Shown in pieces: positions 22,966-50,787 of a DNA stretch of 53,653 nucleotides. The notes under the pieces are model-generated. The model was given only the letters and a program-made list of their open reading frames with translations, ran no database searches and was not told the DNA's origin. The stretch spans positions 1 to 53,653 of IMG/VR virus record IMGVR_UViG_3300037160_000193; one strand, 5' to 3'. The translations under genes were made by a program, and so were the position numbers. Source of the stretch: a virus (lineage: Duplodnaviria > Caudoviricetes). The number at the start of each line of letters is the position of its first letter. Position 1 is the first letter of the stretch.

Positions 22966-22969
22966 GGGG

Positions 22970-30128: not shown

Positions 30129-30143
30129 TAGCTTGCCAACGCC

Positions 30144-30278
30144 GGTACGCACCACTTGGTGTTTGGATTCATTCGATTACAGTCCTGCGTACCTGACCTG
30201 CGTACCTAGAAAAGCGGCTGTGACTAGAGAGAATGTGCCACCAATCCACCCGCCGCCGAAAGTGGCCAGGGAGGACCC
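30144..30278 (-). other. Putative cos packaging site
   Basis: Minus-strand GGGTCCT (30272-30278) equals the lambda cosQ heptamer and is followed by CGGCGGCGGG. Direct repeats CCTGCGTACCT at 30184-30194 and 30197-30207. Immediately upstream of terS. Confidence 0.55.
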
Positions 30279-30515
30279 CAAATTTGCCCAGCGCCCACGT
30301 CTGACGCGACGTTTGGCCAGCGTTCGCGCCGTGGTACGCCCTGTTGCGTCGCGCGGCGGTGGTCAGTGCGCCAGGGCCACCCACGACGTCGGGCGCGCCC
30401 TGTGGCGAGCATCGAAACTTTCTTCCGAAAAGTTGAACTTCAGCCTTGCCTTCCGGGGCCACCGGAGTGATGAATCGTCATGCGCGGATCAACCGCCGAA
30501 AGGATAACCACCACG

Positions 30516-30944
30516 ATGAAGAACGCAGAAGCTACCAACACCACCGAAACCGCCGCCGTTGCGGAACAGGGCGCGCCCGTCGCGCCGGAGAAGGCCCCTT
30601 CGAAGAAGGCTGCCAGCCAGAAGAAGAGCGCGCCCAAGGCCAAGCAGGGCGCCAAGAAAGCCGGCCCCAAAGCCAAGGCAGCCAAGAAGGAAGCCAAGCC
30701 TGCCGCCAAGAAGGCCGCGAAGACGACGGAAAGCGCCGGGCCGCGCGAGGGCACCAAGACTGCCCAGGTGATCGCCATGCTCCAGCGGAAGGGCGGTGCC
30801 ACGCTTGCGGAGATCATGGAGAAGATGGGCTGGCAAAAACACACCGTTCGCGGCTTCATGGCTGGTGCGATGAAGAAGGCCGGCTACACCGTCGAGTCCT
30901 TCAAAAACGTCACGGACGAGCGCACATATCGGATTGCCAAGTAG
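30516..30944 (+). CDS. DUF3489-domain protein with Lys/Ala-rich histone-like N-terminus
   Basis: REGTKTAQVIAMLQRKGGATLAEIMEKMGWQKHTVRGF is the DUF3489 pattern. AAAGGA RBS before ATG 30516. Confidence 0.9.
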   Translation: MKNAEATNTTETAAVAEQGAPVAPEKAPSKKAASQKKSAPKAKQGAKKAGPKAKAAKKEAKPAAKKAAKTTESAGPREGTKTAQVIAMLQRKGGATLAEIMEKMGWQKHTVRGFMAGAMKKAGYTVESFKNVTDERTYRIAK

Positions 30945-30963
30945 CATCACCCCCTCCTTCCTG

Positions 30964-31002
30964 GCCCGCCCGGCTCCGGCCGCGGCGGGCTTCGCTGCTT
31001 CT
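30964..31002 (+). terminator. Probable intrinsic terminator after DUF3489
   Basis: GCCCGCC...GGCGGGC stem followed by a T-rich tail, between convergent genes. Confidence 0.5.
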
Positions 31003-31240
31003 GGCTTCGATTCCCGCCCGCTGCCCTACGTCACGTCAGGGTTGGCCGACACGCCAACCGGTCGCCGCCGGAGCGAACGTGGGCCAACCGTGGCGCTACA
31101 GGGGCCAACCCTTGGCCTGCTCGAAGCAGCCGCAACTCTCCAGACCAGTCGGCCAGTACCAGGCACAAGCCCCTAATGTCCGGGTGCCCAGCCAGAAGCT
31201 GGGCTTCGATGGCCGCGATCTCCCGGCGGCAGCGAGCGAT

Positions 31241-32227
31241 TCACACCGCCGCCTTCTGGCGTGCCTCGGCGATCTCCTCGAAGGTCCGCCCGTCGCCATC
31301 CAGAGTGGCCTTCCTGCCAGCAAGCGTTTGCCAGCGCTGGATCACTACGTCAACGTATTTGGGATCGAGCTCGATGCCGCAGCAGACCCGTTCGGTGACT
31401 TCGGCGGCGGCCAGAGTCGTACCCGATCCGAGGAAGGGTTCATAAACCAACTCGCCGCGTTTGGTGTGATTCAAGATCGGGCGACGCATCAGATCGACGG
31501 GCTTCTGCGTTGGGTGATCGTACTTCTCCTCATCCGATCCGCCCATGATGAACTTCGGCGACGGCGAGTCCCAGATCGTGGAGTTCTCGCCAGCCTTCCC
31601 GAACCAGGCCGCGTTCTTCTTCCTGACGTACCAGCAGGGCTCGTGCTGATACCAGTAGTGCGTACGTGTGAGGACGGTCCTGCCTTTGTTCCAGATAATC
31701 TGCTGGGGGTATAAGAAACCGATACGGAGCAGGCCGTTCAACACTTCCCGGGTGAAGATAGAGGCGTGCCAGACGTAGGCGATTTGCAGGCTGGGCACCA
31801 GTTCGAAGGCTTCCGACCAGTCGGCCCGCGTGTCCCCTGAGATCGTCGTCTCGGTGTGACCTTCGGTGCGCTTCTTCATGTAGCTGGCCTCGGCAGGCCC
31901 GCATCCATTCAGGCCGGCGCGGTCACGCCACTCGGTGTCGAGCTCGATGCCGTACGGCGGGTCGGTCACCAGGAGCTTTGGTTTGCGTTCTCCCAGCAGC
32001 CGTCCCACGGCTTCCGCGCTGGTGGCATCGGAACACAATACGCGGTGTTGACTCCGAACATCGCCACAGAGCCACAGGTCGTCCGGGCGGCACACCGGGT
32101 TCTCCGGAACCGGCGGCACGGCATTCGCTTGATCGTCGTCGGCGACCAACAAGAGATCGTCGATTTCTTTCGGGTCGAAACCGGTGAGGCTGAGATCAAA
32201 GTCCAACTCGCTGATGCCCAGGGACAT
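31241..32227 (-). CDS. DNA amino-methyltransferase (beta class), probably missing its N-terminal ParB domain
   Basis: VTDPPYG motif IV precedes HPTQKP and EPFLGSGTT motif I. Begins at the DFDLSLTGFD linker that normally follows a ParB domain in phage ParB-MTases. Confidence 0.85.
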   Translation of the reverse strand: MSLGISELDFDLSLTGFDPKEIDDLLLVADDDQANAVPPVPENPVCRPDDLWLCGDVRSQHRVLCSDATSAEAVGRLLGERKPKLLVTDPPYGIELDTEWRDRAGLNGCGPAEASYMKKRTEGHTETTISGDTRADWSEAFELVPSLQIAYVWHASIFTREVLNGLLRIGFLYPQQIIWNKGRTVLTRTHYWYQHEPCWYVRKKNAAWFGKAGENSTIWDSPSPKFIMGGSDEEKYDHPTQKPVDLMRRPILNHTKRGELVYEPFLGSGTTLAAAEVTERVCCGIELDPKYVDVVIQRWQTLAGRKATLDGDGRTFEEIAEARQKAAV

Positions 32228-33756
32228 CAGACGGGCTCGTATCGTAGACCGGTGATGGCTTTGAATACCGAGGTGCTGGTGAGGTCGGTGCCGGGAAGAT
32301 CCGGGCAGATGTTCGCCAGCCTGCCGATGAGACGCGAGGCAGAGAACCGATCGTTCTCCAGTTTGTGAAGGCTGACGGCGGCGGTGTTGTGCTTACCGAT
32401 GAATGCCAGCACGGCGCGCAAGTACGTGGATTTCCCGTTGGCGCCGTCTCCCATCAGAAGGATCGCCTTCTGAATCGAGGTGTCTGGGGTCATGAGCCAA
32501 GCCGGGATCTCCCAGGCTATGGTCTCCGAATCGCTGGGGAAAACTTCACCGATGAACTTGTCCCACATTGGACACCGCGCCGCGGCGTCGAATTTCACCG
32601 GAAGTTGAATAGGCGACAGGAAATCGGCTGAGTGCGGCGAAAGCGTCCGCGTGTTGACGGCCAACAAGCCATTCAGAAGGTTCACCTGATCCCCTGGCGG
32701 TCTCTCCCAAAGCATCGGCGCGTCAACGGTGAGGTACTTCACCACCTCCTCTGACTTGTGGCTCGTCCACTTCGATGCCAGCTTCATACGTACCAGTAGC
32801 CTCTTGACCTGCTGAGCGACAAATGATGCTCCGTCGGGATGGTAGCAGCCGTTTCGGTAGGCATACAGCCTTCCGCCGGCATCGCGAGCGAAGCAGTGTC
32901 TGGCCGTGATCGCCTCGGCAATCAGGTGAACGCTGATGCTGTCATCGGCATCTTCCTTTTCGAAGTCGATGCCCTCCAGCAACTCCAAGACTTTCTCCGG
33001 GCCCACGTTGGCCAGCAAATCGTCGATTCCCTTGCCCTGCGCGACGTCCCACGTAACCGACGCAACTTCTGCACCGCGCATTCGCAACTCGCGAGCCAAG
33101 AGGTTTCTGGCTATGCCTACCTGGTCGTTTGTGTCCGCATCAGCGTCAAAGGCGATGATGACGCGGCGGCCTTCGAAAACAACGACGTCGAGGTCCGGGA
33201 TTACGCCCTTGACGTCGCGCCGGCCGCCGTTTGGTCCTGTGGTCTTGCCAACCGTGCCACGCCAGTTCCAAACGCCCGGCAATCCGAGTGGCAAGAACCG
33301 AGGAGATAGCACACCGTGGTTGGCGAGGCGCCAGAGCGCCAGCGTTTTGAACTCGCCCTCAGTTATGATCACCGGTGTGGCCACGTTCTTCAGCAGTTCC
33401 GGTGAAAGGCCCGGAGCGAAATAAATCATGTTGCTTCGGCCAGGCGGCGACAAGTACTTCCCGCGCTCCCTCGGTTTGCCGTCCTTGTACTCTATGTCGG
33501 GGTGATCGCGACGAAGGCGCCATTCGCGAACGCGGGACTCACCGGGCAGGAAGTATGGGATCGCAAGGCCCTCGTAAGGAGCGTGATCGCGGCGGCCCAT
33601 TAAAGACCGTCCGGTGTTGGAATCGACGCGCCGAATTCGGGCGGCTTCGGCGAGTTGCTTGTCAATCCATCGCCGCTCCAGGCTCGCGCAATCCGCATCG
33701 GTGAGCGCGTTGCCGGTTCCCTCATTCACGGGCAGTCCGTTCGCTGTCGCATGCAT
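32227..33756 (-). pseudogene. DUF3854/TOPRIM primase - D5/P4-type SF3 helicase, C-terminally truncated
   Basis: TOPRIM motifs IITEGEFK, IAFDAD, KGIDD. Walker A GDGANGKST. Ends six residues after FKAITG and lacks the rest of the SF3 domain. Confidence 0.75.
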
Positions 33757-33758
33757 AC

Positions 33759-34259
33759 TCACGCTCCCACCGGCGATAAGCCAGCCTCTGTGAACGCCGT
33801 CCGGAGCCGTCCGATGGCTCGATAAACGGTCGCGCGGGAAACACCGAGGCACTGGGTCGTCTCTATGGCCGAGTGTCCGATCAAGCACAGCGCCACCCTC
33901 CGCTCGAACAGGGATACGTCGGCGAGCACGCTTCTGACGTCCGCGCGAAGCTCCAGCTCAAGAAACCCGCCCTCACCGGCGACGTCCTGGTCTTCCAGGT
34001 GTTCGAACTCCGGACCGCGTGGGTGCGAGCGGAGTAGGGACGTGAGGTGGGTGCGGACAACCAGTTCGATGAAAGTGCGAAGCCCTGCCCTGGCCGAATC
34101 ATATCTGGCGAGAGCCTGCCAGACACCGGCAAGGGCCTCCTGTTCCAGGTCCTCGCGATCAGCCACCATGACCGCACCGCTCGCTACCGCGGCGGCCGAT
34201 CGAACCTGGGCAGCGCGAAGTGCCAGCGGCAAGGCCTGCCGGAACATTGTGTCAGGCAT
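33759..34259 (-). CDS. Sigma70/ECF-like sigma factor or sigma-related regulator
   Basis: DREDLEQEAL..VWQALARYD (region 2-like) and a C-terminal HTH, ETTQCLGVSRATVYRAIGRLR. Confidence 0.75.
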   Translation of the reverse strand: MPDTMFRQALPLALRAAQVRSAAAVASGAVMVADREDLEQEALAGVWQALARYDSARAGLRTFIELVVRTHLTSLLRSHPRGPEFEHLEDQDVAGEGGFLELELRADVRSVLADVSLFERRVALCLIGHSAIETTQCLGVSRATVYRAIGRLRTAFTEAGLSPVGA

Positions 34260-34605
34260 GACCCTGCGCTCCGGTACTCGTGTCCCTGTGTTCGATTTCC
34301 AGGGAAAAACAAAGGCCGTTTTTGCATTCTATAGCCAGGATCGTGCCCTCGCCCAAATCGGCAATTGCTTGGAGCATTTCGATCGTCTGGTGTTTGAGAA
34401 GGAAATCCTGTAGCGCTGACTCCGGGCGGGGGCCGTTTTCGCCCCCCATCTTCAGCTTCTGGATAATGCGAGGGGCGGGATCAAAGACTGGTTCGCCGTT
34501 TCGGACGTGTAACTCCTCGACGCGGCCATAGTTGAGTCTTTGGAGTATTTCGACGAGCCGGGATTGCGACTTCGACAGAACAGACTTGGGAATTGGATGG
34601 TTCAC
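34252..34605 (-). CDS. Hypothetical phage protein
   Basis: GAGGAG RBS, GTG start, overlap with the sigma-like gene, protein-like composition. Confidence 0.75.
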   Translation of the reverse strand: MNHPIPKSVLSKSQSRLVEILQRLNYGRVEELHVRNGEPVFDPAPRIIQKLKMGGENGPRPESALQDFLLKHQTIEMLQAIADLGEGTILAIECKNGLCFSLEIEHRDTSTGAQGHA

Positions 34606-34781: not shown

Positions 34782-35987
34782 CTAGAACTGCCAGTCCGGA
34801 ACTTCGGCCGGTGCGTAGACCAATGAATTGCCTGTCTGGATCGATTCCTTGAGGTGGTGGCCAAGGGCAGGATGATGTTCGGAGATGTAATCCCTCGCGC
34901 GATTGACTGCAGTGGTTACAGCCGTTCTTGAGCGCTCGGCACTGCCTCCCGCTTCACGCGGCTGGCCAAGGCGGTCTTGGACACCACCGAGGTACTTCTT
35001 GAACTTATCAATCTCCTCCTGCAAAGATCCCCTTCTCGCCCAATCATTCGCGGCGAGGTGCGCCAGTTCGGATTCTCTCTCCTGAAGCATCGCCTTCGCT
35101 TGTCCAATGCTCTCCGGATCAGCCAAGGGGATTCCCCGATCCACCAGTTGCATCTCGACAGCCGGCGCCCCCGTCAATCTCATAGCCTCGATTGGCGTGT
35201 GTGGTCGGCGCAACAGCTCTACTATATAGCTCATCCCACTTCGGTCCGGTAAGTGAACAGTCTGGCCAGCTAACGAAAGTTCCCAGACCAATTCGTTCTC
35301 CTTGCGGAAGATGCTGGCACCCCCGGCGGCCGGAATCGAGGCGGAAGTGGCTGCCCAGTCGACCGCAAGACTACCCGTGCCTGCGGCTTCCCAGAGACTG
35401 AAGGCATGCACGTTGGAGTCGCGAAGAATCCGGCGCGCTTCAGACGAGAATGCAATACCTTGCGGCAATAACAGAGATGTCTCCTGCTGGGCGCCAAGGA
35501 CGTGCAATCGGGCACAACGCGCAAGGACAGCTTGTTCGCTTCCGTTGGGCAGTGAAAGGTACACCCAGCTCGGGTTGTGTGCTTCCACAGTCTTGGTACC
35601 CAATGGGATGAGACCTCTGTTGTTGTCGAACCCCGAACCCTCGATGCCATTGTCGCTTCGAATTCCGTCCACCAAGTGGGGAAGCGAGATCGGATATTCC
35701 CAAGTATCCTCATCCGTCAACGGAATCGGCTCGTAGTGGAAGTCCTCGCTCTCGGTGACGCCCAACGGTCCGGTCGGACCATCGTGGACATCGACGTCAG
35801 GGCCGGGCCCGAACCGCTTGGGCCTGGGCACACGGTCGGCTTTCAACGGCGACAGCAGCACATCTCTAGCGCGGAGAGCCGCCAGCTCACCGGCTGGGTA
35901 TGCCGCGGCTTCCGAGTGTTGGAGCACGGGTGACTCAATCGTGTCCAGCAGCGTCAGCACTCTCTGAAGCAGGTTTCCCTTCAACAA
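34782..35987 (-). CDS. Hypothetical protein, possible DNA-binding regulator
   Basis: 401-aa ORF. The C-terminus (GMSYIVELLRRP...AERSRTAVT.AV.RA...HHPALGHHL..SIQTG...Y.P) resembles a domain I associate with transcriptional regulators. Confidence 0.65.
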   Translation of the reverse strand: MLKGNLLQRVLTLLDTIESPVLQHSEAAAYPAGELAALRARDVLLSPLKADRVPRPKRFGPGPDVDVHDGPTGPLGVTESEDFHYEPIPLTDEDTWEYPISLPHLVDGIRSDNGIEGSGFDNNRGLIPLGTKTVEAHNPSWVYLSLPNGSEQAVLARCARLHVLGAQQETSLLLPQGIAFSSEARRILRDSNVHAFSLWEAAGTGSLAVDWAATSASIPAAGGASIFRKENELVWELSLAGQTVHLPDRSGMSYIVELLRRPHTPIEAMRLTGAPAVEMQLVDRGIPLADPESIGQAKAMLQERESELAHLAANDWARRGSLQEEIDKFKKYLGGVQDRLGQPREAGGSAERSRTAVTTAVNRARDYISEHHPALGHHLKESIQTGNSLVYAPAEVPDWQF

Positions 35988-37091
35988 GGACCTTCCATGT
36001 CCGCAACGATTCGAACACTTCTTCCGCGTGCGTTGCGCGTTTAAAGGAGATTGTGTTATCGCCCGACAGTGTGACTCGCTTACCCCGCTTGTCGTCGCTG
36101 AACGTAAATTTGAAGACTGCCCTATTAATCTGATCTGCCTGCAGCTTGGCCTTTAGCTCATTATTCCAAGCGTTTCTACGACATTCCGCGATTTCACAAT
36201 GAACGACGGCCCCTGCATCTGGGGCAACTTAAAATCCAGTTCGACTAAGGCCGCGTTACCCAACCCACCGACGCCGAAAGAGGGGCCGGCGATCACCCCC
36301 AAATTGAGGCACTTCGATGCTCCCGGCCATTCGAAGAAACTGGCGTCTCCGAGGCAGCAATCGGCGAATCGCTTTCGGAGAATCTCCTCATCCTTCTCGA
36401 ACTGGGTTTCGATCTCCAGTTGGCCCGTCGTACGGTTGTAACTGATGAAATCCTGCTGCGCTGGCCGCAAGACTGTCGGAGTCACACGCATTTTCTTTCG
36501 AGCGCGTTTGAGCGTTAGCAGGGCCTGCGTCCGCTTCTCGTGGTACACGATGAAGTTCACGTAAACGTCTTCCTCGTACGGAAGAACAAGCACGCTGTCG
36601 CTGTTCTTGCGGCCTTTGAAGTCGGTCGCGAGCCGCTTGAAGAGCCGGTCGGCTGCTGCCTTGATGTCCTCTATCGGCCGTCCCTCTTTGCCCTGGTAGA
36701 TTGAGAACCGTTCTGCCTTCTGAAGGCTGCAATCCGCATAGGCGCGATTGAATGCATCCTCATGTTTCGCAAGGACGCTCAAGCTCAAAAGTTCGACTGC
36801 CAACTTCTCCTTCGGATCTGGAGGCTTTGGCAGCATCGCACAGGCCCGCCGCAGTGCTTCGAGGCCATCGGGTGTGCAGAGGTCGTAAGCGCGGTAGAGC
36901 CCTTCCATAAATGGATCTTTGTCGGGCCACTCCTCGCCAAGAGTCAAGTCCCTGAATCCATCCACATCGAGAGACGAGATGTCTACGGTTAGTCCGTTCT
37001 TCCAGCGCCGGACGTAGCCGCGCAGGATCTCTTCGTGGTCCTCGAATTTGGCCAGGAAGCGGTCGACGTTGAATTTCCGATGCTTAGCCAT
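35935..37091 (-). pseudogene. Hypothetical protein with a frameshift near 36165
   Basis: ORF 36153..37091 stops at ...ETLGIMS. A shifted frame continues NNELKAKLQADQINRAVFKFTF...LRTWKVLVEG to TGA at 35935, overlapping the next gene and filling the gap. Confidence 0.6.
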
Positions 37092-37557
37092 TGCCGCGAG
37101 CCCTCGTTCGTGCTGAAATCAGCGACTGACCTCGCCAGCCACCTTGGCAGGTGGGGCCTTGATAGTCCCGACAGCAAGCAGGACGATGAACTGCGCAATT
37201 TGTGATTCTGGATTCGCTTGAAAGCGCCAAACACCGGCACAACAGTCTGGACGACAGATGCTGCGCCACAAGCGTTGGGCCCTGATGATCCGGCATACGA
37301 AGCCCGCCTCCTCGCAAGAGAAGCTGCCGCGGATTCAGTACGCCCGATCTGGCCCGAGCCTCCCCAATCCACGGGTACCCCGGCCTCTCTTGATTCATGC
37401 TACCAAACTACAGGACCTTGCGGAATTGTTTTGCGCGGGCGGCAATCCGGCTTTGTCGCACCTGAAGAAGCTCTGATTTTGCAGGCCCAACTCCAACGTT
37501 TTATGCGTGGTTCAGCTCGAACAAGAGATGACCGGGCGTAGATAGGCGGAGGAGCCT

Positions 37558-38835
37558 TTACGAACGACGGCTGGTTTTTAGGATCACGACACTCTCTCGT
37601 AAGTGTAGAGAACGGCTGACTTCATCGCCGAGCTTGTTTAGATGCTGTCCAGAACTGCGTAGATGCCTGATGACGCCAACCTCACTCAAGTACCATCCGG
37701 AGCGTTCTGCAATTTCGGCGATGATGAAATCGACCGGAACTTCAACGCCGGCATAGGCAGAGGTTGCAACTACTATCCAGACGGCCGCTCCAGGGAGCGC
37801 CAGGCGCCTCAATCGAAGAAGTATCCGCTCCATATCCTCGAAGTAGGCCTGAATCATGGCGGGTATCCTGTGGTCCCAAAGAATCTCTGAGCGGGAACGC
37901 ACTTCCGTCATGACATTAGTGAATAGTTGGCCGAAAGACGCCCGCTCCGGCGGCTCCCAGTTTGCCTGCACATGAGACCTTATGGTGGATTTTCGAATCG
38001 TCGCCAGTTCCCTGTTCGAGCCAACGAATCTTCCAAGGAAGAGTTCAGGTCGGTATACGTCTGAATAGTCGAATGAATTCAAATATGGTGGTGAAGTCAC
38101 GCTAAGCTTGAATCTCTGCCCATCCGTCGCCAACACCTTCCGAGCATCACCCAAAATAACTTTATGGTCGCCGCTCGGGGTATCCGACAGCCTCACGTCA
38201 GAGCAGACATCTTCAACTCGATGCTCGAACGAATCAAGAAAACTCGGCCTTCCGAACCCTATGCTCTTCCAATCTTTCCGGTATCGAAGGCACTTGCCGT
38301 CCGCCGTCGCATTGCAGTTGTCCATCGCAGCACCAAGGAGGCAGAGTCTCAGAAGATCGCCCGCCGGGCCCGGACAATCAGTCAATGATGTCCACCCCCC
38401 TTCGAAAGAACGAAGCACGGATCGATTGAATAGCCACTTCACCGAATCCTTATTCTCCGAGAATGTAGAGTACGACTCAAGTGAGGACCTCGCGCCGTGC
38501 CGCACGCCACGCGTAGCGGTGGAGAGGTGCTTCCGGAGTGTTGACGAGCGGCATGTAAGAAGCTTGGTCCGAGAAACGAACGCGAGAAATGGATTGACCT
38601 CAACACCGAATGCTGCGCGGCCCTGCAAGCTAGCGCTCAGAGGCACAGTCCCGCTGCCACAAAACGGATCGAGGACCGCGTCGTCCTTGGCGAATGTGAC
38701 AGTCTCCGCTGCTGATTTGAACAGCGTCGGAGAAAACCCCTCTTTGATGACGTACCAGCGGTGTCTCGGCGAGGTCGAGCAGTCATCCGCCGTCGAGCAT
38801 CCGGTCCCGCGTAATTTGAAGGATTCATTTAACAT
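37558..38835 (-). CDS. DNA methyltransferase (alpha order, SPPY; likely N4-cytosine)
   Basis: HRWY..KEGFS, then VLDPFCGSGT (motif I), then VTSPPYLNSFDY (motif IV). Confidence 0.9.
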   Translation of the reverse strand: MLNESFKLRGTGCSTADDCSTSPRHRWYVIKEGFSPTLFKSAAETVTFAKDDAVLDPFCGSGTVPLSASLQGRAAFGVEVNPFLAFVSRTKLLTCRSSTLRKHLSTATRGVRHGARSSLESYSTFSENKDSVKWLFNRSVLRSFEGGWTSLTDCPGPAGDLLRLCLLGAAMDNCNATADGKCLRYRKDWKSIGFGRPSFLDSFEHRVEDVCSDVRLSDTPSGDHKVILGDARKVLATDGQRFKLSVTSPPYLNSFDYSDVYRPELFLGRFVGSNRELATIRKSTIRSHVQANWEPPERASFGQLFTNVMTEVRSRSEILWDHRIPAMIQAYFEDMERILLRLRRLALPGAAVWIVVATSAYAGVEVPVDFIIAEIAERSGWYLSEVGVIRHLRSSGQHLNKLGDEVSRSLHLRESVVILKTSRRS

Positions 38836-38845
38836 TCGTTTAGCA

Positions 38846-39892
38846 CTACGGCGTGCAGACCGGCTCGACGAACATGCGGATCGGATGCTCGAAGTCTTTT
38901 CTGACCTGGTGGTACTTCGGTTGATAGGTGATCTCCGCTGCCGAGTACTTCATGCCATCCTCTTTTGAAATCTCGGTGCGCTGAAGAGAGAGCTTCGCTC
39001 TCCGGGCATCCACAACGACAAGGTAAGCGCGAGTCTCATGGACGGGAGCCTGTATCCTGTTGGCGTCCATGTAATCAGCCAACTGCTTCGCGCCTTTGTT
39101 GGCGCGCGAATCCGCATAGGTCGCGGAGACCTTCGTGGTGCTCCGGGACTTTCCCAACCATTTGATTTCAATAAGCGCCAGACGATTTGTCATGAACCAC
39201 GTCACCTTGATGTCCACGGGATGGGATTCATCGACGATTTGCTCAGGACGCACCTCCACGCCTCCTGAAAAGGTGATTTTCAGAAACCGCGTTAGAGAGC
39301 GCCGGATAATCGCCTCGGGTCCCGCTTTGAAATAGAGGCGACTAGGCTCATACCAGGCCGTATTCAGAATTTCGCAGGACGACGTGCGGACCATCGTATC
39401 CCGGTACGCTGCGAGAGCTTCTTTCAGGTTGCTGAACGTCGGCAACGCGAAGTTACTCGACCTTCCTGGTATCACCTTGGGAAGGATTTTGGTTTCTCTA
39501 TTCGCATGGAAGCGCTCAGTGCCCCTGTAAAACGAGTAAACGACGGCGAACTGGGAGAGATGCTCTGGATCGGCAGTGAACTGAGGCCAGATGATAAAAA
39601 CGCCACTCGGAGTAACCTGAATCGCGCATGGTCCCGCCACAGTGTTAACAAGCTCATGCAACGAGGCGCATTCAAGTCCCGCATCGGTTATCGGGCGAGC
39701 AGCATCGTCTAGTGTTTGAAAAATGATGATCGTCTCGTCCTGGGCTTCGGCGGCTACGTGTTCATAAAAGCCCTTTATGAAGGTCAGAATTGATCTGACT
39801 GTCGGGCCTGCCTTGGCGCCATGATGCTCAATCACAAACGGCACGAACGCATCTGCGAATACGCTCGCCATAGCGGTTTCGTCGATGTTCAT
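38846..39892 (-). CDS. Putative PD-(D/E)xK nuclease
   Basis: PE...PVDIKV...LIEIKW...KQLADY matches the E-D-ExK-QxxxY pattern. ATG 39892 with GGAG RBS, 2 nt after the upstream stop. Confidence 0.7.
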   Translation of the reverse strand: MNIDETAMASVFADAFVPFVIEHHGAKAGPTVRSILTFIKGFYEHVAAEAQDETIIIFQTLDDAARPITDAGLECASLHELVNTVAGPCAIQVTPSGVFIIWPQFTADPEHLSQFAVVYSFYRGTERFHANRETKILPKVIPGRSSNFALPTFSNLKEALAAYRDTMVRTSSCEILNTAWYEPSRLYFKAGPEAIIRRSLTRFLKITFSGGVEVRPEQIVDESHPVDIKVTWFMTNRLALIEIKWLGKSRSTTKVSATYADSRANKGAKQLADYMDANRIQAPVHETRAYLVVVDARRAKLSLQRTEISKEDGMKYSAAEITYQPKYHQVRKDFEHPIRMFVEPVCTP

Positions 39893-39894
39893 GC

Positions 39895-40518
39895 CTATGT
39901 GGTATCTCCTGAACCCGCGGCAATTAGATCGTCTTGCATTTCCGAAGCGCGCCACAGATAACCAAGCCAGACTGTCGCCGGAATCAGCAGATCCTTGTGT
40001 TCGACGCCGACGGTGTGTCCTAGCGCCGCGAACTGGTCATAGAGCCGCGGCAGATACGGACCGTCGAGGAGGGGGCGCGTTGTCGCCAGACGGCTTGTAG
40101 GCTTTAGCGTGGGTTCCTGAGTGAGCGCGTGCCGGATCACGCCAACTGGCATAGTCAAGCTGCTTGAGCAAGCAGGCTCAAGGTACGTAGCGCGTTCGCG
40201 ATTTTGGAACAGTTCCTGGAATGTCGACAGTTCTGCCCGCCCGCTGTCCGTGATGCCGATGTCTCCTTCCGAAACGTGAAGATACCCGGTCGATGCCATC
40301 GCGCGCACGGCCCCCTCGATTTCCGGGCTGAATGGCGACCCGTCTCGTGTGCCTGCGAAGCCGTATCCCCAATCGGACACCGGCTGGCCGCGATAGAGCG
40401 ACAGGAGACATGCCAGATAGGCGAACGCGTGAATTTCGGCTACGACTGGGCGACGGATGTTCGTGCCCAGCGCGGCAGAAATGTACAAGCTGTCGAACGC
40501 AGCGTAAGGGTTAACCAT
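39895..40518 (-). CDS. Small hypothetical protein, winged-helix-like (possible ABC-3C middle component)
   Basis: GSPFSPEIEGAVRAMASTGYL...ITDSGR looks like a wHTH. Start overlaps the ATPase stop by 8 nt. Confidence 0.6.
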   Translation of the reverse strand: MVNPYAAFDSLYISAALGTNIRRPVVAEIHAFAYLACLLSLYRGQPVSDWGYGFAGTRDGSPFSPEIEGAVRAMASTGYLHVSEGDIGITDSGRAELSTFQELFQNRERATYLEPACSSSLTMPVGVIRHALTQEPTLKPTSRLATTRPLLDGPYLPRLYDQFAALGHTVGVEHKDLLIPATVWLGYLWRASEMQDDLIAAGSGDTT

Positions 40519-42532
40519 TCTTCTTGCGGGGTCCTGGCCGCTTTGCCTTCGCCAAGGCTTTCTCTATCTGTTGGAAGGCTTCATCGAAAAGATCCTCTTC
40601 TTCCATCTGCACGTCCGACAAATCGGTCCACGTAGTCATTCTGCAGAGGTTCATCATCTGATTGCCGCACTGCTCGGCGAGAGAGAGGAGGAGACGCGAG
40701 GTATTAATGTTCGCCGTCATGATGATGCCGAATCCATCATGGACAAATCGTGCGAACATGTCGCCGGCCCTGCTCTCGTAGGCGATATCGAGCGAGCCTT
40801 CAGGCGTGTCAACGAAGAAACTCCCTTTGCTTGCCGGGTCAGACATGTACTTAATGAGGGCCATTCTCAGCGCCATGTCGATGAAAAAGCGTTGACTTTC
40901 CGAAAGTTGATGAAACTGGCGTCGGGCCGTGCTCTTCACTTCAAGCAAAATCGTCACTCCGATCGTCTGGCGGCTCTCAAGACGAATATCAAGATCGAGG
41001 CCCAGAAACCGGTGGGCCAAATCGGTGAAGCTGGGAACGAACTCCGCTTCGGCCTGGTCGTATCGATCCACGAGACCTTTCTGGAGGACGGCGAGTTCCT
41101 TCCGGCTCTCGTTACGCTTCTCGTATTGAGCACGCTTTTTATCGAGTAGCTCCTCGATCTGGATTCGGTATCGCTTGATGGCGGAATCGACATTTTCAGT
41201 TTGTTTGGATCGTACGAACGCCTCAAGCGCCTGCGAGTTCTCCGCTTCAAACGCGATAAGCGCGGTCCGAGCCGCACCCAATTTCACCGAGGCGTCAGCG
41301 GCATCCTTTTGAAGGCGATCCCTCTGTTTCACCGCGTCCGACAGGGCAGATCGTATGGTCGAGATCTGCTGGTCGAGGGCTTGGATGGCTTTAACATCCT
41401 TGGTCTGGGCCGGCGCTATGGCCTGCTCGCACATGGGACATTGGTGTTTACTCAGCTTGCGTTGAATGGACGCTCTGACGGCCGCACCTTCCGAGCCACA
41501 AACCTCGCACTTGCTGCCGGCTAGTGACATCGCGACCACGGGACTCTGCTCTACCGCTGATTGTGTTTGGAATCTCCTCGAAAACTCAATTTCGTAATCG
41601 GTTCGCAGTGATGCTTGCCGAGCACTTAGGTCAGAGATCTTTAGGAGCACGTCCTTAACGGCATTCTCTGCCATCTGCGCCTTGAGCTCGAGTCCGTCGG
41701 TGCGTTCTACGAGCTTTACATGCGTTCTGCGAAGGTCTTCTGAATCGGCGCCTGAACTCTTACCACCCAAAGCCTTCTGGAGGTCGTCGAGCTTCTTTCT
41801 CAGCTCCGTTGCTTGCCAGTTGGCGTTGCGGGCAAGCGAATCCGCCTTGTCAGCCTCGCGCCTTACTTCATCGGCACGCTCTGCGTCTTGCTGATCGACA
41901 CCGAACGCGATGTACAGCACTCGTTCCAGAATTTTCTCATCCCAGAAGAGCAGGTGGCGGCGTTCATCGAACGTAAATACGAAATGCTGAAGAAAGACAT
42001 ACTGTTCAAAGGAATGCAGCCCGATATCAGTGGCCAGGTTGGTGGTGTAGATATCGTGCAAATCCCGAGCCTTAATGTTCTTCGTTCTTACGAGCGATGT
42101 TCCGTCTTCGCCGATGATTTCCAGGCCTCTTAATTCTTCCGCTTCGAACATTCCGCGGGTGATGCGGTAGATGTGTTTGCCCACTGTCATTTCTAGGGTG
42201 GCTTCCGCGGAGTCCCGATCATGCTCCTCGATGCGGCCATCGAAGAAATCAGCGGAGAATGGCTCTGTGTGACGGTAGTACTCACCGATCGACAGAAAAG
42301 TGCGATTTGGGTCTGATACGCGGCCTGTAAGAGCAAAATTGAGGGCGGCGAGGAATGTTGACTTTCCGAGACCGTTAGCGCCGGCCAAACAAAACACTCC
42401 ACGGTCGAACGTGACATCGACGAGTGGCTGCGTAGAGTAGAGAGTGAAGTTTCTCAGCTGCAGTGTGCGAACCCGTGGAAGATTTAATCGCGGACGCGCT
42501 GGCGGTCCAACCTTCTTTGCAAGATTAGGCAA
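40511..42532 (-). CDS. SMC/Rad50-like ABC ATPase with coiled coil and two CxxC motifs
   Basis: LRNF, Walker A GANGLGKS, coiled coils around CEVC and CPMC, signature LSESQR, Walker B/D-loop FFVDTPEGSLD. Confidence 0.9.
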   Translation of the reverse strand: MPNLAKKVGPPARPRLNLPRVRTLQLRNFTLYSTQPLVDVTFDRGVFCLAGANGLGKSTFLAALNFALTGRVSDPNRTFLSIGEYYRHTEPFSADFFDGRIEEHDRDSAEATLEMTVGKHIYRITRGMFEAEELRGLEIIGEDGTSLVRTKNIKARDLHDIYTTNLATDIGLHSFEQYVFLQHFVFTFDERRHLLFWDEKILERVLYIAFGVDQQDAERADEVRREADKADSLARNANWQATELRKKLDDLQKALGGKSSGADSEDLRRTHVKLVERTDGLELKAQMAENAVKDVLLKISDLSARQASLRTDYEIEFSRRFQTQSAVEQSPVVAMSLAGSKCEVCGSEGAAVRASIQRKLSKHQCPMCEQAIAPAQTKDVKAIQALDQQISTIRSALSDAVKQRDRLQKDAADASVKLGAARTALIAFEAENSQALEAFVRSKQTENVDSAIKRYRIQIEELLDKKRAQYEKRNESRKELAVLQKGLVDRYDQAEAEFVPSFTDLAHRFLGLDLDIRLESRQTIGVTILLEVKSTARRQFHQLSESQRFFIDMALRMALIKYMSDPASKGSFFVDTPEGSLDIAYESRAGDMFARFVHDGFGIIMTANINTSRLLLSLAEQCGNQMMNLCRMTTWTDLSDVQMEEEDLFDEAFQQIEKALAKAKRPGPRKKNG

Positions 42533-42987
42533 CGATAGCCTCTTCCGGCTGCGCGAGGCCGTTAGCGAGATCGAAAGGCGTGCGCATTTGGCGGCTTCTT
42601 GTGAGTTGTGTCGCCATGTGGTTCGGCATTAGATTTAATCACTTGGACCGCTCAACCGTTCGTGACACGGCGAAAATCATTGCAGCGCAGATATGTTCCG
42701 GGAAAGACCACAGAGCGCTAACGCTTCATACTATCAGATATCTGCCGGCGGGGCCGGCGATGCAATGCCTACTTTTGAAACGACTTCCATCGCTGAATGC
42801 TCGCTTTCGCATTCGGCGCGCCCGTAAACGTGAGGCGTGTTCGTCGTCCACTCCACACCATCCTGAAAGTGCTGTTTCCTGGACCGGTTGGGGATGCTAA
42901 CGGGCGGCCAGCCAAGCTGGAGTCGGTGTCGGTCCTGGACATCGGGTCGGGCAAACCACAACAGCCCGAACAACCTTGTGTCGGCGC

Positions 42988-43437
42988 TCACCTCCCCCGC
43001 CGAGCCGCAATGCCTTCCGAACCCATGGTGGTCGAGGGGTTGCCGAGCAGCTCGGTCCAGAGCCTTCGCTGTTCGCTCCAGCCGACGACCGCTGTTACCT
43101 GGCGGAGGCAGCGCTCGGGTACGTTGGCCTGGGCAACGAGAGCCGACGCGGTCAGAAGCACCTCTTGAAGATCCGGTGCGAGGTTGAGCATGTTCATGAT
43201 TTGGGTGATTCGCGCCCGCGTGACGAAGCCGAGCCGGGCGAGGTCGGCGTAGTCGCGCACCTCGCCACGGTCGACCATGTCTTGAAACTTGACTGCGAGC
43301 GCCATCAGGCGCGCGAATCGCGGAACGCGCGGCGGTTCAGGCAACTTGGGACCGGTGTTCCGACGTTGACCGCCTTTGCGGCTTGTCGCCGGGGCGATGC
43401 TGACTTCGATCTGCAGCGTCCCATTGAGGCCGCTCAT
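42988..43437 (-). CDS. Recombinase-associated HTH protein
   Basis: DYADLARLGFVTRARITQIMNMLNLAPDLQE (ParB/KorB-like HTH). ATGA overlap with the recombinase. Confidence 0.75.
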   Translation of the reverse strand: MSGLNGTLQIEVSIAPATSRKGGQRRNTGPKLPEPPRVPRFARLMALAVKFQDMVDRGEVRDYADLARLGFVTRARITQIMNMLNLAPDLQEVLLTASALVAQANVPERCLRQVTAVVGWSEQRRLWTELLGNPSTTMGSEGIAARRGR

Positions 43438-44972
43438 CGTACTGCCTCCTTCTGAACCAGTTCCTTCACCTCAGCCGATTTGAAACTGACCGTGACCTTG
43501 CCGGTCCGCCCGTCGTAACCGACCTTCTCAACCAGTTGGCGCAGCAGGGTTCGCTGCTCTTCCAAGCTCATGGTCTTCCATACCTCCTCGAAGGAATCCA
43601 TTGCTCGCCGCAATTCCTTTTCATCGATCCGCTGCTTTTCCCGGCGCAGAATCTCCTTGCGAAGCCCCTCTGCGCGCGCTTCCCCTGCTGCGAGTTGCTC
43701 CCGGATCTCGGCCAACCGAGCAGCCTCCGGGTTTCGGAGCCGGGCGACCTGAGACTTCAGATTCTTAACGCGACCGTTTGTGGTGTTCAATTCCCCGCGC
43801 AGGCCTGTGACGATCTCCGCGAGCCGCTGACGCGCCGCGACCGCTGTCTCGGCGAGCACGTCAGGGTGGACGCCCACGCGCCGGATGCTCTCGACGACCG
43901 CATCCTCGACCAAGGGTGCGGATACCGACCGTGACGTGCAGTAGCCCTCGATCTTTTGCTGCGACCGGTAGCACACGTAGTAGCGGTAGCGGCGCTCCTT
44001 GTTGGCTGAGTACGTGGAGTACATGCCCGAGCCGCAGCATGAGCAGTAGATCATCCCGCGCAGCAGCACGTCCATCTTTATGCGGTGCGGGTTGCCGGAC
44101 TTCCACGTGTTGTCCTTGAGCTTCACCTGGGCGAGTTCGAAGGTCGGCTGGTCGATGATGGCCTCGTGTTCTCCAGGGAAGACTTCGTCGCCGACCTTTA
44201 CCTGGCCGGTATAGAGGACGTTGCCGAGCAGTTCATAGATGTGGCACCGCCGTAGGGGGCTGCCTCCATAGAGCTTGCCGTCCTGCGTGGTCCATTGTTT
44301 GTTTCGCCAGCCCCGTTTGTCGAACCGCTGGACAATCTCTATGACTGGCGTGCCTTCCAAATAGAGGCGGAACATCTCCCGGATTCTCTCGGCCTCCTCG
44401 GCGTTGACGGCCAATTTCCCGGCGCGCGAGTCCAAATCGTAGCCGAGCAGAATGTGCCCACCGGTCCACTTGCCCCTCTTCCGCGCGGCGACCTGCTTGT
44501 CGCGGGTGCGTTCCGAGATGATCTCGCGTTCGAACTGCGCAAAGGACAGCAGGATGTTCAGCGTCAGCCGGCCCAACGACGACTTCGTGTTGAACTGTTG
44601 CGTGACGGAGACGAAGCAGACGCCGCGCTTCTCGAACAGCTCCATCATTCTCGCGAAGTCGATCAACGAACGGCTGAGGCGGTCGACCTTGTAGACAACC
44701 ACGCAGTCGATCTTGCCGGCCTCGATGTCACCGAGCAGTTGCCGCACGCCGGGCCGCTCGATGTTGGCGCCGGTGTACCCGCCGTCGCTGTATTGGGTCG
44801 GCACCAGGGTCCAGCCGTCGTGCTTCTGGCTGACGATGTAAGCCTCGCCTGCCTCTCGCTGGGCGTCTAGCGAGTTGAATTCCTGGTTAAGGCCTTCTTC
44901 CGTCGATTTGCGCGTGTAGATCGCGCACCGGACGGGTTTTGGCGCGGGCGTTCCGTTACTGGTGGCTGCCAT
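43434..44972 (-). CDS. Large serine recombinase (resolvase + recombinase + Zn ribbon)
   Basis: CAIYTRKS catalytic Ser motif, VYKVDRLSRS, FAQFERE, CSCCG...YYVC zinc ribbon. Confidence 0.95.
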   Translation of the reverse strand: MAATSNGTPAPKPVRCAIYTRKSTEEGLNQEFNSLDAQREAGEAYIVSQKHDGWTLVPTQYSDGGYTGANIERPGVRQLLGDIEAGKIDCVVVYKVDRLSRSLIDFARMMELFEKRGVCFVSVTQQFNTKSSLGRLTLNILLSFAQFEREIISERTRDKQVAARKRGKWTGGHILLGYDLDSRAGKLAVNAEEAERIREMFRLYLEGTPVIEIVQRFDKRGWRNKQWTTQDGKLYGGSPLRRCHIYELLGNVLYTGQVKVGDEVFPGEHEAIIDQPTFELAQVKLKDNTWKSGNPHRIKMDVLLRGMIYCSCCGSGMYSTYSANKERRYRYYVCYRSQQKIEGYCTSRSVSAPLVEDAVVESIRRVGVHPDVLAETAVAARQRLAEIVTGLRGELNTTNGRVKNLKSQVARLRNPEAARLAEIREQLAAGEARAEGLRKEILRREKQRIDEKELRRAMDSFEEVWKTMSLEEQRTLLRQLVEKVGYDGRTGKVTVSFKSAEVKELVQKEAVR

Positions 44973-45489
44973 GTTTCCTCCCCGGCTTGCCGCCGAGCCC
45001 GAAGAACGCGAACCCGTTCCAGGGCGTACCCGTCGCCTCGCGCACAGCGGAACTCAAGGAACGGTGGATGTTCCCGCCATACTCGAAGCCGTCTTCCCGG
45101 ACGCGAACGACGATGTCCTTGCCTCGATAGCGGCGCACCAGCATGGTGCCGGGAATCGGCAGCCGCGGGTCCTCGGTTGGCGCGACACGCGTCTCGATTG
45201 TTCGGCTCTCGTCCAGTTCCACTTTCAGGAAATTCCTCGGCGCACGAATCCGGAGGTCTGCGTCATCGGCGATCTCCAGTGCGCGGCGGCGCGCGCGTTC
45301 CGAGAGGCCGCCCCACGCGTTCGCTTGCATCCGCCAGGCGATGCGGCGGAAGAGGAACTGTTTATGGTTCGAGCGGCTCGCTTCACCGAAGACTTCGCCG
45401 TACTTCTGCTTCAGTTGCCCGACCGTCATGTGGCGCAAGGCCTCAATTCCCTCGCGCATGGCGGTCGAGCTAACTATCTCTTTCCTCAT
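44956..45489 (-). CDS. DUF2924-domain protein
   Basis: FLFRRIAWRMQ..AWGGLS, PGTMLVRRYRG and SLSSAVREATGTPWNGFAFFGL motifs. Adjacent to the serine recombinase. Confidence 0.9.
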   Translation of the reverse strand: MRKEIVSSTAMREGIEALRHMTVGQLKQKYGEVFGEASRSNHKQFLFRRIAWRMQANAWGGLSERARRRALEIADDADLRIRAPRNFLKVELDESRTIETRVAPTEDPRLPIPGTMLVRRYRGKDIVVRVREDGFEYGGNIHRSLSSAVREATGTPWNGFAFFGLGGKPGRKHGSHQ

Positions 45490-45644: not shown

Positions 45645-45840
45645 GAGCGGTCTCCTTAGAGGCCACCCACGACGATGTCCGCTGTGCGGTCGAGCGCCGT
45701 CTGGTGGGATAATCGACGCGGGTCGTTTCCGCGTCCGTTAACTATATACGCAGTGATTGTGGAAAGTGTCTCACTTGGCGGGCCGATTTCCATGGACTAC
45801 GGTCGATCCGCTACAATCGCTAGCGATTCTTCCGGCGGCG

Positions 45841-46572
45841 ATGGCAAAGGAATCCAAACTCGTTCGAGCAAGCAACACAACGCGAACGTGGCTGCGGAGG
45901 CTCCACGAACGGATTCCAACGCTGGACTACACCGAAGCGAAGTATTGGGCGACGTTCAAGGCAGGCTCAGCCGGGGCCGTTGCTCAACTGAATCCATCGC
46001 ACGTGGGTATTCGAGCCTTCCTGACACTGGATTCCGGCGCCGGACCAGATCTCAAGCCGAGTCCATCAACACGGAGTTGGGCCGCGCGGTTCCCGTCGGT
46101 CTTCCAGATCGCGGGAGAAGAGGACCTGACAAGAGCCGGCCAACTGATCCTCATGTCGGCTGACACTGCGCGTGCACGAGCCAAGAACCCCTACACCCGG
46201 CGCTCCGATCAGCTTTCGGCTGACGAAGTCGAAGGCGGAACTGCATACCAGGAGGGGGCAGTACGCCAGGTTACCGTGAACGCCTATGAGCGCAATCAGG
46301 AAGCTCGCGAGGAGTGTTTACGGCACCACGGGCGGAGTTGCATCATTTGTGGGTTCAACTTCATGGAAGCGTACGGAGCCGAAGCCGCCGATTACATTCA
46401 GGTCCACCATATCAAGCCGATAGCACGCGCGGGTGGCTCCTACGTTTTAGATCCGATCAAGGACTTGCGCCCGGTCTGTCCGAATTGCCATGCCGTGATT
46501 CACCGCAGAGATCCACCCTTTGAAATCGCGGAGGTCAAGAGAATGCTGCGCCGGACCGCGGCCGGACGCTAA
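45841..46572 (+). CDS. McrA-like HNH endonuclease
   Basis: EG......NAYERNQEARE.C...HG..C..CGFNF...YG......IQVHH..P......DL.PVCPNCH..IH. Start uncertain (45757 GTG or 45841 ATG). Confidence 0.85.
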   Translation: MAKESKLVRASNTTRTWLRRLHERIPTLDYTEAKYWATFKAGSAGAVAQLNPSHVGIRAFLTLDSGAGPDLKPSPSTRSWAARFPSVFQIAGEEDLTRAGQLILMSADTARARAKNPYTRRSDQLSADEVEGGTAYQEGAVRQVTVNAYERNQEAREECLRHHGRSCIICGFNFMEAYGAEAADYIQVHHIKPIARAGGSYVLDPIKDLRPVCPNCHAVIHRRDPPFEIAEVKRMLRRTAAGR

Positions 46573-48194: not shown

Positions 48195-48668
48195 TCATGA
48201 ATTGAAGTACCTACCGAAAATCACGATGGCGCTGGGGAACGGAGCGGAATTCCTCGCTTGGCCGAATTTCAGGCGTCCGCGCAGAAACCACACCTGGCCG
48301 CGCCTTGCATAGTCCTGCCACCAGCGAGTGTCCGTTCGCGCAGGTAAAAGGCAGACTACTCGCGTCCCTTCACGCGATTCCTCGAAGGCTTTACGCACCC
48401 ACGCTCCGATGTTTCGGCCGTAGGGCGGATTGACGAAGACCTTCCCCTCCCAACGCTGGGCAAGTCCGTTTTCGCCCCTCGTGAAAAAGCGCGCGCACTT
48501 AGCGTTCGCCCTTGTTGCACACGGATCGAGAGTGAAGCCGCCAAAAATCCAGGCCAGCTCGTCAAAGAGCGCCTGAGGTGTTTCCCAGTCATCCGTCGCG
48601 CTCGAAAAGTGAACGCTCAGGCCCGCCATATTTTCCTTTTCTCCTGCGATCTCTGTGCTTGCCGCCAT
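48195..48668 (-). CDS. Phage-type DNA N6-adenine methyltransferase (Dam family)
   Basis: DDWETPQ, FTLDPCA, VFVNPPYG, LLPARTDT.WW and FLRGRLKF motifs. Confidence 0.9.
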   Translation of the reverse strand: MAASTEIAGEKENMAGLSVHFSSATDDWETPQALFDELAWIFGGFTLDPCATRANAKCARFFTRGENGLAQRWEGKVFVNPPYGRNIGAWVRKAFEESREGTRVVCLLPARTDTRWWQDYARRGQVWFLRGRLKFGQARNSAPFPSAIVIFGRYFNS

Positions 48669-50732: not shown

Positions 50733-50787
50733 ATGCTATGATCCGATCGAACCGGATGACCGCCGCAGGCGCACGGAAAGGACAAAC

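Follow-up and report, generated by a model that had tools for sequence, protein, structure and literature searches.

We analysed a 53,653-base virus record (IMGVR_UViG_3300037160_000193, positions 1 to 53,653; this whole stretch of DNA is called the window below) and found in it four adjacent minus-strand genes that form one conserved, self-contained and horizontally mobile unit. In order of transcription they encode an SMC/Rad50-like ATPase, a small winged-helix protein (the middle protein), a nuclease of the PD-(D/E)xK type and a DNA methyltransferase with an SPPY motif (the methylase), and together they are referred to as the cassette (Table 1). The four genes recurred in 74 genome loci, in two viral contigs and in two more divergent loci, which is more than chance would produce.

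Table 1. Features of the four-gene cassette in the window.
Feature	Coordinates	Strand	Details
SMC/Rad50-like ABC ATPase, LmuB kind	40511-42532	-	673 residues; TTG start; GAAGAGG 7 nucleotides upstream
Middle component, winged helix	39895-40518	-	207 residues; 8-nucleotide overlap with ATPase stop
PD-(D/E)xK nuclease	38846-39892	-	348 residues counted from ATG
SPPY DNA methyltransferase	37558-38835	-	425 residues
Mobile cassette extent	37571-42484		sole stretch of the window aligning at the DNA level with loci L001 and L002

The genes are tightly packed. The overlap of the ATPase and middle-protein genes reads ATGGTTAA, two nucleotides separate the middle-protein gene from the nuclease gene (TAG-gc-ATG), and ten nucleotides lie between the TAG of the nuclease gene and the ATG of the methylase gene. 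A preliminary description of the locus had given four co-oriented genes with these same three junctions, and the junctions proved exact when read from the sequence. The longest open reading frame (ORF) of the nuclease starts at a GTG at 39955 and would overlap the middle-protein gene by 61 nucleotides. The preliminary description had also placed the genes in an AT-rich cargo slot just downstream of a recombinase. This was borne out: on the minus strand, the cassette comes next downstream after the genes for a large serine recombinase (43434-44972, minus strand) and its DUF2924 partner (44956-45489), between the recombinase and the replication genes, and its guanine-plus-cytosine (GC) fraction was 0.538-0.571 per 1-kb interval of 37001-43000, compared with 0.592-0.642 over 20001-34000, where the terminase, portal and capsid genes lie. 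A promoter and terminator scan of 36900-43500 found fewer sites than in shuffled sequence and yielded nothing usable.

The ATPase carries a Walker A motif GANGLGKST (K57), a conserved TFDE at 187-190 and an LSESQ signature. At the coiled coil's apex there is a zinc-hook-like CxxC...CPxC pair, kept in at least 80% of 27 aligned family members and missing in locus L020. The Walker B motif, FFVDTPEGSLD, is non-canonical: a threonine rather than glutamate or glutamine follows D575, while E578 is invariant in the 27-member alignment. No H-loop histidine was found in the family alignment. Pfam AAA_23 scored 51.5 bits (cut-off 27), and SMC_N matched the P-loop end only. The best PADLOC model was LmuB (PDLC03859, E 7.6e-19), which aligned residues 25-582 to model positions 4-553 of 611 and matched all 27 family members with moderate scores (best E 3.7e-23). 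The PADLOC mad3 model matched 26 of the 27 (best E 1.2e-14), and the PbeC and DndD models aligned only to residues ~21-90, the P-loop region. Against the sequences of the Protein Data Bank (PDB), the family profile gave weak SMC/Rad50 matches and a DUF3732 (LmuB-type) chain, 9hqu_A, at E 0.0017; the single ATPase sequence matched the SMC3 head only (E 2.8e-4). By these profile matches, the ATPase falls in the LmuB (Lamassu/ABC-3C) group.

The middle protein belongs to no Pfam or NCBIfam family, Pfam MC families included. PADLOC returned WH_III-A only (E 0.0019), and among 28 middle proteins one matched LmuC (E 0.027) and one JetB (E 0.035). Its structural model (predicted local distance difference test score, pLDDT, 95.7) has a winged helix in the N-terminal half and a helical C-terminal half. 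When the model was compared with 48,161 representative solved chains by VIA-align, the best match was 7yk3_D (Z 10.8, 145 aligned residues). Ranks two and three, both at Z 7.1, went to small chains from Lamassu complexes, 9hqx_d with 115 aligned residues and 9ny5_C with 119, which from their length we take to be LmuC; ORC and PadR/MarR winged helices came next, at Z 6-6.7. The modelled fold is thus among those nearest the Lamassu small chains. Foldseek gave nothing at E<=0.001 for this protein, and its profile gave nothing meaningful against PDB sequences. The top-ranked 7yk3 is a DarTG toxin-antitoxin entry, and its score stands well above those of the Lamassu chains and the winged helices.

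In the nuclease, D227, E242-x-K244 and Q270...Y274 are kept unchanged by every one of 20 aligned relatives. Its model (pLDDT 81) divides into an alpha/beta domain at 1-148 and a PD-(D/E)xK restriction-endonuclease domain at 151-348. For the latter, VIA-align listed BamHI (Z 7.8), CdiA-CT (7.7), McrC (7.4) and OkrAI (7.1), followed by many type II enzymes. The N-terminal domain resembled diadenylate cyclases (2fb5, Z 6.8; CdaM, 6.1; DisA, 6.1; DacM, 6.0); DGA and RHR, which we take to be the diadenylate-cyclase motifs, were both absent from the alignment of this domain in 20 relatives. Foldseek likewise put DisA and CdaA chains first, with probabilities up to 1.0 and template modelling (TM) scores of only 0.19-0.25; restriction-fold proteins were weak, and Hjc and other structure-specific nucleases share the fold. 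The nuclease has no Pfam, NCBIfam or PADLOC family, and none of 20 members matched any PADLOC model, those of LmuA and restriction enzymes included. Its relatives are numerous and all unnamed: a first search found 414, and an exhaustive one over 1.84 billion representatives gave 580 clusters at 50% identity (E<=1e-3). Its profile found nothing meaningful among PDB sequences, and no longer protein containing it, as a fused form would be, appeared at E<=0.001, which is weak evidence. In the ESM Atlas the clusters nearest to cassette proteins were unnamed and gave leads only: PDDEXK_9 (0.91), SocA_Panacea/PadR (0.87) and ABC-3C MC2 (0.85). The second of these leads concerns the middle protein and, like its DarTG match, points to antitoxin-type domains.

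The methylase has motif I (DPFCGSGT, 56-63) first, then ~165 more variable residues and motif IV (SPPY, 248-251). Residues G60, T63 and S248-P249-P250-Y251, in the motifs DPFxGSGT and SPPY, were invariant in 28 of 28 members drawn from all four gene arrangements described below. Pfam N6_N4_Mtase scored 37.8 bits (cut-off 26.7), and the PADLOC MTase_II model PDLC03224 matched over the full length at E 2e-46. A complex prediction for the nuclease and the methylase gave 0.00 against a mark of 0.32; it was run without controls and counts neither way. Motifs, models and alignments thus agree with the four calls of the preliminary description, which had named an SMC-type ATPase, a winged helix-turn-helix protein, a D...ExK...QxxxY nuclease and an SPPY methyltransferase.

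Conservation was assessed in 74 loci with 10-kb flanks, collected by a nuclease-alignment scan with one genome per species. They come from 13 named phyla (Actinomycetota 16 loci, Acidobacteriota 13, Bacteroidota 12, Pseudomonadota 12, nine others) and one unknown. Using the window proteins as tblastn queries, the ATPase was found in 72/74 loci, the middle protein in 73/74 and the methylase in 70/74; the loci without ATPase or middle protein were contig ends or the most divergent locus. Every locus that has these genes shows the one order ATPase-middle-nuclease, and successive genes overlap or lie only a few bases apart. The conserved order across taxa that the preliminary description had proposed as a check was found for the first three genes.

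The methylase behaved differently: it changed place and stayed adjacent. Separation of the methylase from the other three genes had been set beforehand as a possible refutation of their forming one system, and the loci showed the opposite, with a homologous methylase directly adjacent in 69/74. It lay downstream on the same strand in 48 loci, downstream on the opposite strand in 4, upstream on the same strand in 9 and upstream on the opposite strand in 8. A tree built from the concatenated core showed at least nine changes of methylase position (shuffled mean 17.2) with adjacency kept, and a linkage that survives repeated rearrangement supports a functional tie better than a frozen operon would. 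Five loci had no adjacent homologous methylase: L048 and L070 are at contig borders, L072 is a wreck, and L018 and L022 are the others. Among the 57 loci that a script called as having a full-length core, 55 had a homologous methylase within 500 bp; the remaining two were L048, where the contig ends, and L018, in which an ORF for a different, beta-type N6_N4 methylase follows right after the nuclease, in the region 11126-12287. In the 74 loci, every intact trio of ATPase, middle protein and nuclease whose flanks were sequenced had a methylase gene beside it, which implies that the trio alone may be toxic.

This linkage bears on a first alternative, in which the cassette would be an ordinary abortive Lamassu-type system whose ATPase and middle protein detect phage DNA and set free an indiscriminate, cell-killing nuclease, and the methylase a separate gene that, for instance, shields the DNA of the element from other restriction systems or regulates expression. 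We regard this as unlikely. The ATPase is LmuB-like in 27/27 members, the middle-protein fold is near the Lamassu small chains, and the Walker B motif departs from the canonical form, as that of LmuB does (PMC10586767). The phage of the window also has two other methylases, probably of the anti-restriction kind (31241-32227 and 48195-48668). A passenger methylase, however, would not stay adjacent in 69/74 loci from 13 phyla through at least nine changes of position, and this methylase subfamily was found only with the trio in the genome sample described next. Moreover, the nuclease resembles type II restriction enzymes and matches no PADLOC LmuA model, and the string 'methyl' occurred 0 times in the searched passages on Lamassu in each of two sources (PMC10586767; 10.1101/2025.04.02.646746).

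The second sample was an even sample of 401 Acidobacteriota genomes searched with the ATPase and methylase profiles. The ATPase profile found two close copies (genomes G001 and G330) and two distant ones (G293 and G142). The methylase profile matched 34 genomes at E<=1e-20, with a clear step between the top five (E<=1e-124) and the next (4e-80). These five were the four ATPase-bearing genomes and a genome with a remnant of the cassette (G163). In this sample the methylase subfamily occurs only with the four-gene system. Two distant cousin loci (L086, 1799-6860; L087, 4862-9931) have the same four-gene layout with ATPases ~25% identical to that of the window. In L087, from G142, the methylase is 49% identical to that of the window and the nuclease core is homologous (hhalign probability 95%); the identity of this methylase suggests that methylases have been exchanged between clades. 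Homology was not shown between the middle-protein profile and the 212-residue protein of L087 (hhalign probability 8%) or between the nuclease profile and the 354-residue protein of L086 (38%).

At the DNA level, blastn aligned the window with L001, from a metagenome-assembled genome of Bryobacteraceae (71% identity, 4955 columns), and with L002, from Paludibaculum fermentans (67% identity, 4903 columns). Both alignments ended at the cassette borders, and nothing outside the four genes aligned. Flanks were not conserved among the 74 loci: the only recurrent flanking family was a tyrosine integrase, in 16/74. Homology that ends at the borders and flanks that are not conserved indicate that the cassette moves as a unit. 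IMG/VR gave two loci, and a tblastn search with the nuclease had no match among GenBank phages or PLSDB plasmids; this rarity in virus collections marks the phage location as one of many homes. Ten large neighbouring genes from nine loci all matched PADLOC models at E<=1e-5: HmaC and PsyrT (E 0), MzaB, MzaC, a DRT reverse transcriptase, DpdF, PDC-S33, mad8/HerA, and the Tn7-type TnsB and TniQ. The defence-island context raised in the preliminary description is thus met with in these neighbours, whose models are of defence systems or mobile elements, and a defence role fits such neighbourhoods.

Decayed copies were instructive. In L022 (8702-11041) the methylase is absent, the ATPase is cut to its last 234 residues, and a TIR-domain gene and an IS110 transposase adjoin. 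In G330 (L088, 10249-14649) a Mutator-family transposase splits the nuclease, and in G163 (L109, 8966-10437) an intact methylase is preceded by the last ~48 nuclease codons, the rest being gone. Decay is asymmetric, as in restriction-modification: the ATPase or nuclease is lost, or the methylase alone is kept. A trio that does harm once its methylase is missing would be expected to decay in this way.

Asymmetric decay and mobility also bring up the possibility that the cassette is mainly a selfish addiction module, in which, on the pattern of type II restriction-modification, loss of the cassette or prophage would lead to under-methylation and killing by leftover nuclease, with defence secondary or absent. 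The cassette moves as a discrete unit, is found in phages and beside integrases and Tn7-like genes, and was never seen as an intact trio without a methylase gene beside it, all of which would suit such a module. We nevertheless consider it distinctly improbable as the main function: an SMC-like sensor and a middle protein that are always kept would be left unexplained, since a two-gene pair suffices for addiction, and the neighbourhoods are rich in defence systems. Addiction is in any case compatible with restriction rather than exclusive of it.

The same remnants speak to a modification-dependent system, in which the methylase would mark DNA, possibly invading or replicating DNA, and the nuclease would cut the marked form. 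This has been proposed for the unrelated Ambrosia, which pairs a methylase with a nuclease that may target its product (10.1101/2025.09.30.679545), and McrC is among the structural matches of our nuclease (Z 7.4). The host would be methylated too, however, so that the scheme would call for further control, and no regulator gene is present in the cassette. The methylase would also be the dangerous gene and the first to be lost, yet G163 keeps the methylase alone and other copies lose the ATPase or nuclease. We hold this alternative to be very improbable.

It is also highly unlikely, in our view, that the cassette has no part in defence and instead serves mobile elements in DNA repair, recombination or segregation, with a Rad50/SbcC-like ATPase and a structure-specific nuclease as its basis. 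The weak matches of the ATPase profile to Rad50 and SMC heads, the fold shared with Hjc and other structure-specific nucleases and the SbcCD origin proposed for Lamassu itself (10.1101/2025.04.02.646746) would agree with such a role. Against it stand the sporadic distribution (4/401 genomes in the sample of one phylum), the frequent decay by insertion-sequence insertion and deletion, the defence-island context, and the presence of a dedicated methylase, for which repair systems have no need.

We favour the reading that the four genes are a Lamassu-related, methylation-gated restriction system, carried here as phage cargo, with a mechanism that we infer; we judge it somewhat likelier to be right than wrong. 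The core would be an LmuB-type SMC-like ATPase with an LmuC-like winged-helix middle protein, in which the Lamassu effector has been replaced by a restriction-type PD-(D/E)xK endonuclease. The methylase would mark resident DNA, chromosome and prophage alike, at its target sites. In Lamassu, an LmuB dimer with LmuC holds a monomeric effector and binds DNA ends, and activation frees the nuclease (10.1101/2025.04.02.646746). By analogy, an ATPase dimer and the middle protein may hold the nuclease through its N-terminal, non-catalytic domain, a presumed dock, and the ATPase-middle complex may sense a structure typical of foreign DNA as it enters or replicates, free ends for instance. The licensed nuclease would then cut unmarked DNA and spare the methylated host genome, and an abortive response of the Lamassu type would have been turned into self/non-self restriction. 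On a temperate phage, this would shield the lysogen from other phages, and losing the prophage would carry a penalty. In a variant put forward in the preliminary description, the system might instead be a guard triggered by inhibition of methylation. We further put forward, tentatively and as a proposal just short of an even prospect, that the cassette represents an unnamed class of restriction-modification in which an SMC/Rad50-like sensor of the Lamassu type replaces the helicase or GTPase motors of types I, III and IV, and in which the nuclease needs both foreign structure and missing methylation and, unlike that of an abortive Lamassu ancestor, acts non-suicidally.

A pairing of nuclease and methylase receives a hint from sequence distances: methylase distances tracked those of the nuclease catalytic domain (Spearman 0.56-0.59; 0.48 after removing the ATPase distance) and not those of the nuclease N-terminal domain (0.07-0.12 after the same removal), an exploratory comparison that uses non-independent pairs. 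This last property is one of several points that weigh against our reading. Lamassu works by abortive infection with an indiscriminate effector (PMC10586767; 10.1101/2025.04.02.646746), which makes methylation sensitivity an added assumption. As judged from the alignment, the non-canonical Walker B motif and the missing H-loop histidine argue against a fast translocating motor, and sensing and licensing are therefore favoured over long-range translocation. The LmuC-type matches of the middle protein (Z 7.1) are level, to within 1 Z, with those of generic winged helices, and the structural matches of the nuclease are middling, with a best Z of 7.8, where values below 8 can reflect a common arrangement only. 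Residues F136, G180, D213, D230 and R232 are invariant between methylase motifs I and IV, so that this region is not a freely varying recognition domain. The neighbours that matched PADLOC models had been chosen as the largest adjacent ORFs and not at random. Finally, the methylase ORF of L018, which matches the Pfam model over its first half only, may be broken; the remainder may be in the following ORF (11778-12287), in which case a frameshift or an assembly error could be the cause.

Elsewhere the window encodes a capsid protein (23753-25840), a portal of the lambda type (25865-27424), a large terminase (27634-29574) and a DUF3854/D5_N protein that resembles a primase (32227-33888); further on, at 50599-51894 on the plus strand, comes a tyrosine integrase that has an arm-binding domain. 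One 53.6-kb record thus holds two recombinases, the serine enzyme on the minus strand and the tyrosine enzyme on the plus strand, and may include a nested or adjacent second element. The two methylases outside the cassette are both on the minus strand. That at 31241-32227 is an N6_N4 methylase (PADLOC MTase_II, E 4e-56) adjoining the primase gene, and that at 48195-48668 is of the Dam family (PF05869, E 1.1e-27); both are probably anti-restriction cargo. Three minus-strand ORFs, at 36153-37091 (312 residues), 34782-35987 (401 residues) and 34252-34605 (117 residues), had no Pfam or PADLOC match. They occupy a stretch of lower GC fraction (0.55-0.59) between the cassette and a sigma-70-like gene and may be further cargo. 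By the recombinase module, 45757-46572 (plus strand) encodes a 271-residue HNH protein with a weak match to a model of a type IV methyl-directed restriction enzyme (E 1.5e-4).

If the favoured reading is true, the cassette joins two branches that have been treated as separate: SMC-based sensing of foreign DNA, as in Lamassu and Wadjet, and epigenetic self-marking, as in restriction-modification. It would also be a natural experiment on an abortive system made non-lethal by an added methylase, and a four-gene system of this kind would have spread over at least 13 phyla and onto phages. The window gives an example of a temperate phage with such a system as cargo beside a recombinase. The cassette adds two protein families for which Pfam, NCBIfam and PADLOC have no model, the nuclease with its 580 clusters and its winged-helix partner. 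At ~5 kb, the four genes are compact, clonable and directly testable.

The preliminary description had recognised no named system in this combination, and that assessment stands within the databases consulted: PADLOC-DB v2, Pfam and NCBIfam did not recognise the combination, and no cassette protein of the window reached a curated NCBIfam cut-off. An annotation of the PADLOC type would report only a lone type II methylase here. A literature search over the main texts of papers returned no description of an LmuB-like ATPase system with a methylase. The 2020 classification of ABC ATPases by Krishnan et al. reportedly places some clades 'together with restriction-modification systems' and may already list this neighbourhood.

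Restriction systems of types I, III and ISP, McrBC and Wadjet share with the proposed working a nucleotide-driven, DNA-handling machine that permits a nuclease to act on foreign DNA, and types I and III use methylation as the mark of self. The machines of types I, III and ISP are helicase-type motors and that of McrBC is a GTPase, whereas the cassette ATPase is of the ABC/SMC type. Wadjet consists of SMC, kleisin and KITE proteins and a TOPRIM nuclease and has no methylase (PMC10586767), and the middle proteins of the cassette matched its JetB in the one case of 28 given above (E 0.035).

MADS is closer in composition, since it combines a methylase, an ABC-type ATPase and a nuclease and its mad3 model matches the ATPases. 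That model, however, has 374 positions and no coiled-coil insert, and its match is confined to the ABC head; mad2 matched weakly (E 1.8e-6, 44 residues). MADS has eight genes and the cassette four. We rejected MADS as an identification because MAD3-MAD4 is an ATPase-nuclease module of the OLD family (PMC13662399), while the cassette consists of four genes only, with unconserved flanks and no TOPRIM or OLD nuclease.

The CxC-clade ABC/DndE systems, relatives of PbeABCD, likewise have a coiled-coil ABC ATPase with a small DNA-binding protein and nucleases. In some of their neighbourhoods, cytosine-5 or circularly permuted N4-cytosine methylases occur instead of phosphorothioation (PMC10853773). 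They are the clearest printed precedent that we found for an ABC-ATPase scanning core that recruits base methylation (PMC10853773), so the pairing of such an ATPase with a methylase, for which the preliminary description had named no precedent, has a forerunner. The partner protein there is DndE, which has two ribbon-helix-helix domains, and here a winged helix, and the nucleases there are HKD enzymes with an SF2 helicase. DndD and PbeC were rejected as identities of the ATPase because their models match the P-loop region only, as opposed to residues 25-582 for the LmuB model.

With type II restriction-modification the cassette has in common a separate SPPY methylase of the N6/N4 family beside a PD-(D/E)xK endonuclease whose fold is near BamHI, OkrAI and BglII, decay to orphan methylases, and the nature of a mobile, possibly addictive unit. 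It differs in its SMC-like ATPase and winged-helix protein, translationally coupled to the nuclease, and in a nuclease that has an extra N-terminal domain of ~150 residues and matches no PADLOC restriction enzyme. A plain type II system was rejected because, across the 74 loci, the nuclease never occurred without the ATPase and middle-protein genes except at contig ends or in decayed copies.

Lamassu is the nearest relative. Shared features are an SMC/Rad50-like ATPase of ~650-670 residues that has short coiled coils, a nuclease effector with a separate non-catalytic domain, and a sporadic occurrence in defence islands and on mobile elements. The zinc-hook-like cysteine pair and the Walker B motif that lacks the usual catalytic glutamate may also be held in common, and so may the small helix-turn-helix-type middle protein, which agrees with LmuC in size and in its place between ATPase and effector. 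In LmuB, too, many members have a zinc hook and the Walker B glutamate is absent (PMC10586767). The differences lie in the order of the genes, which is ATPase-middle-effector in the cassette and effector-middle-ATPase in Lamassu (10.1101/2025.04.02.646746), and in the effector, whose catalytic domain is C-terminal here (151-348), whereas LmuA has an N-terminal effector domain and a C-terminal docking domain (PMC10586767). Effector and middle protein also match no LmuA or LmuC model, save for one of the 28 middle proteins (E 0.027), and the cassette has an attached methylase. The preliminary description had set the cassette apart from Lamassu: gene order, effector and methylase uphold that distinction, while the LmuB-like ATPases (27/27) and a middle-protein fold near the Lamassu chains reduce it. 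The cassette is a relative of Lamassu that departs from it in the order of its genes, in its effector and in having gained a methylase.

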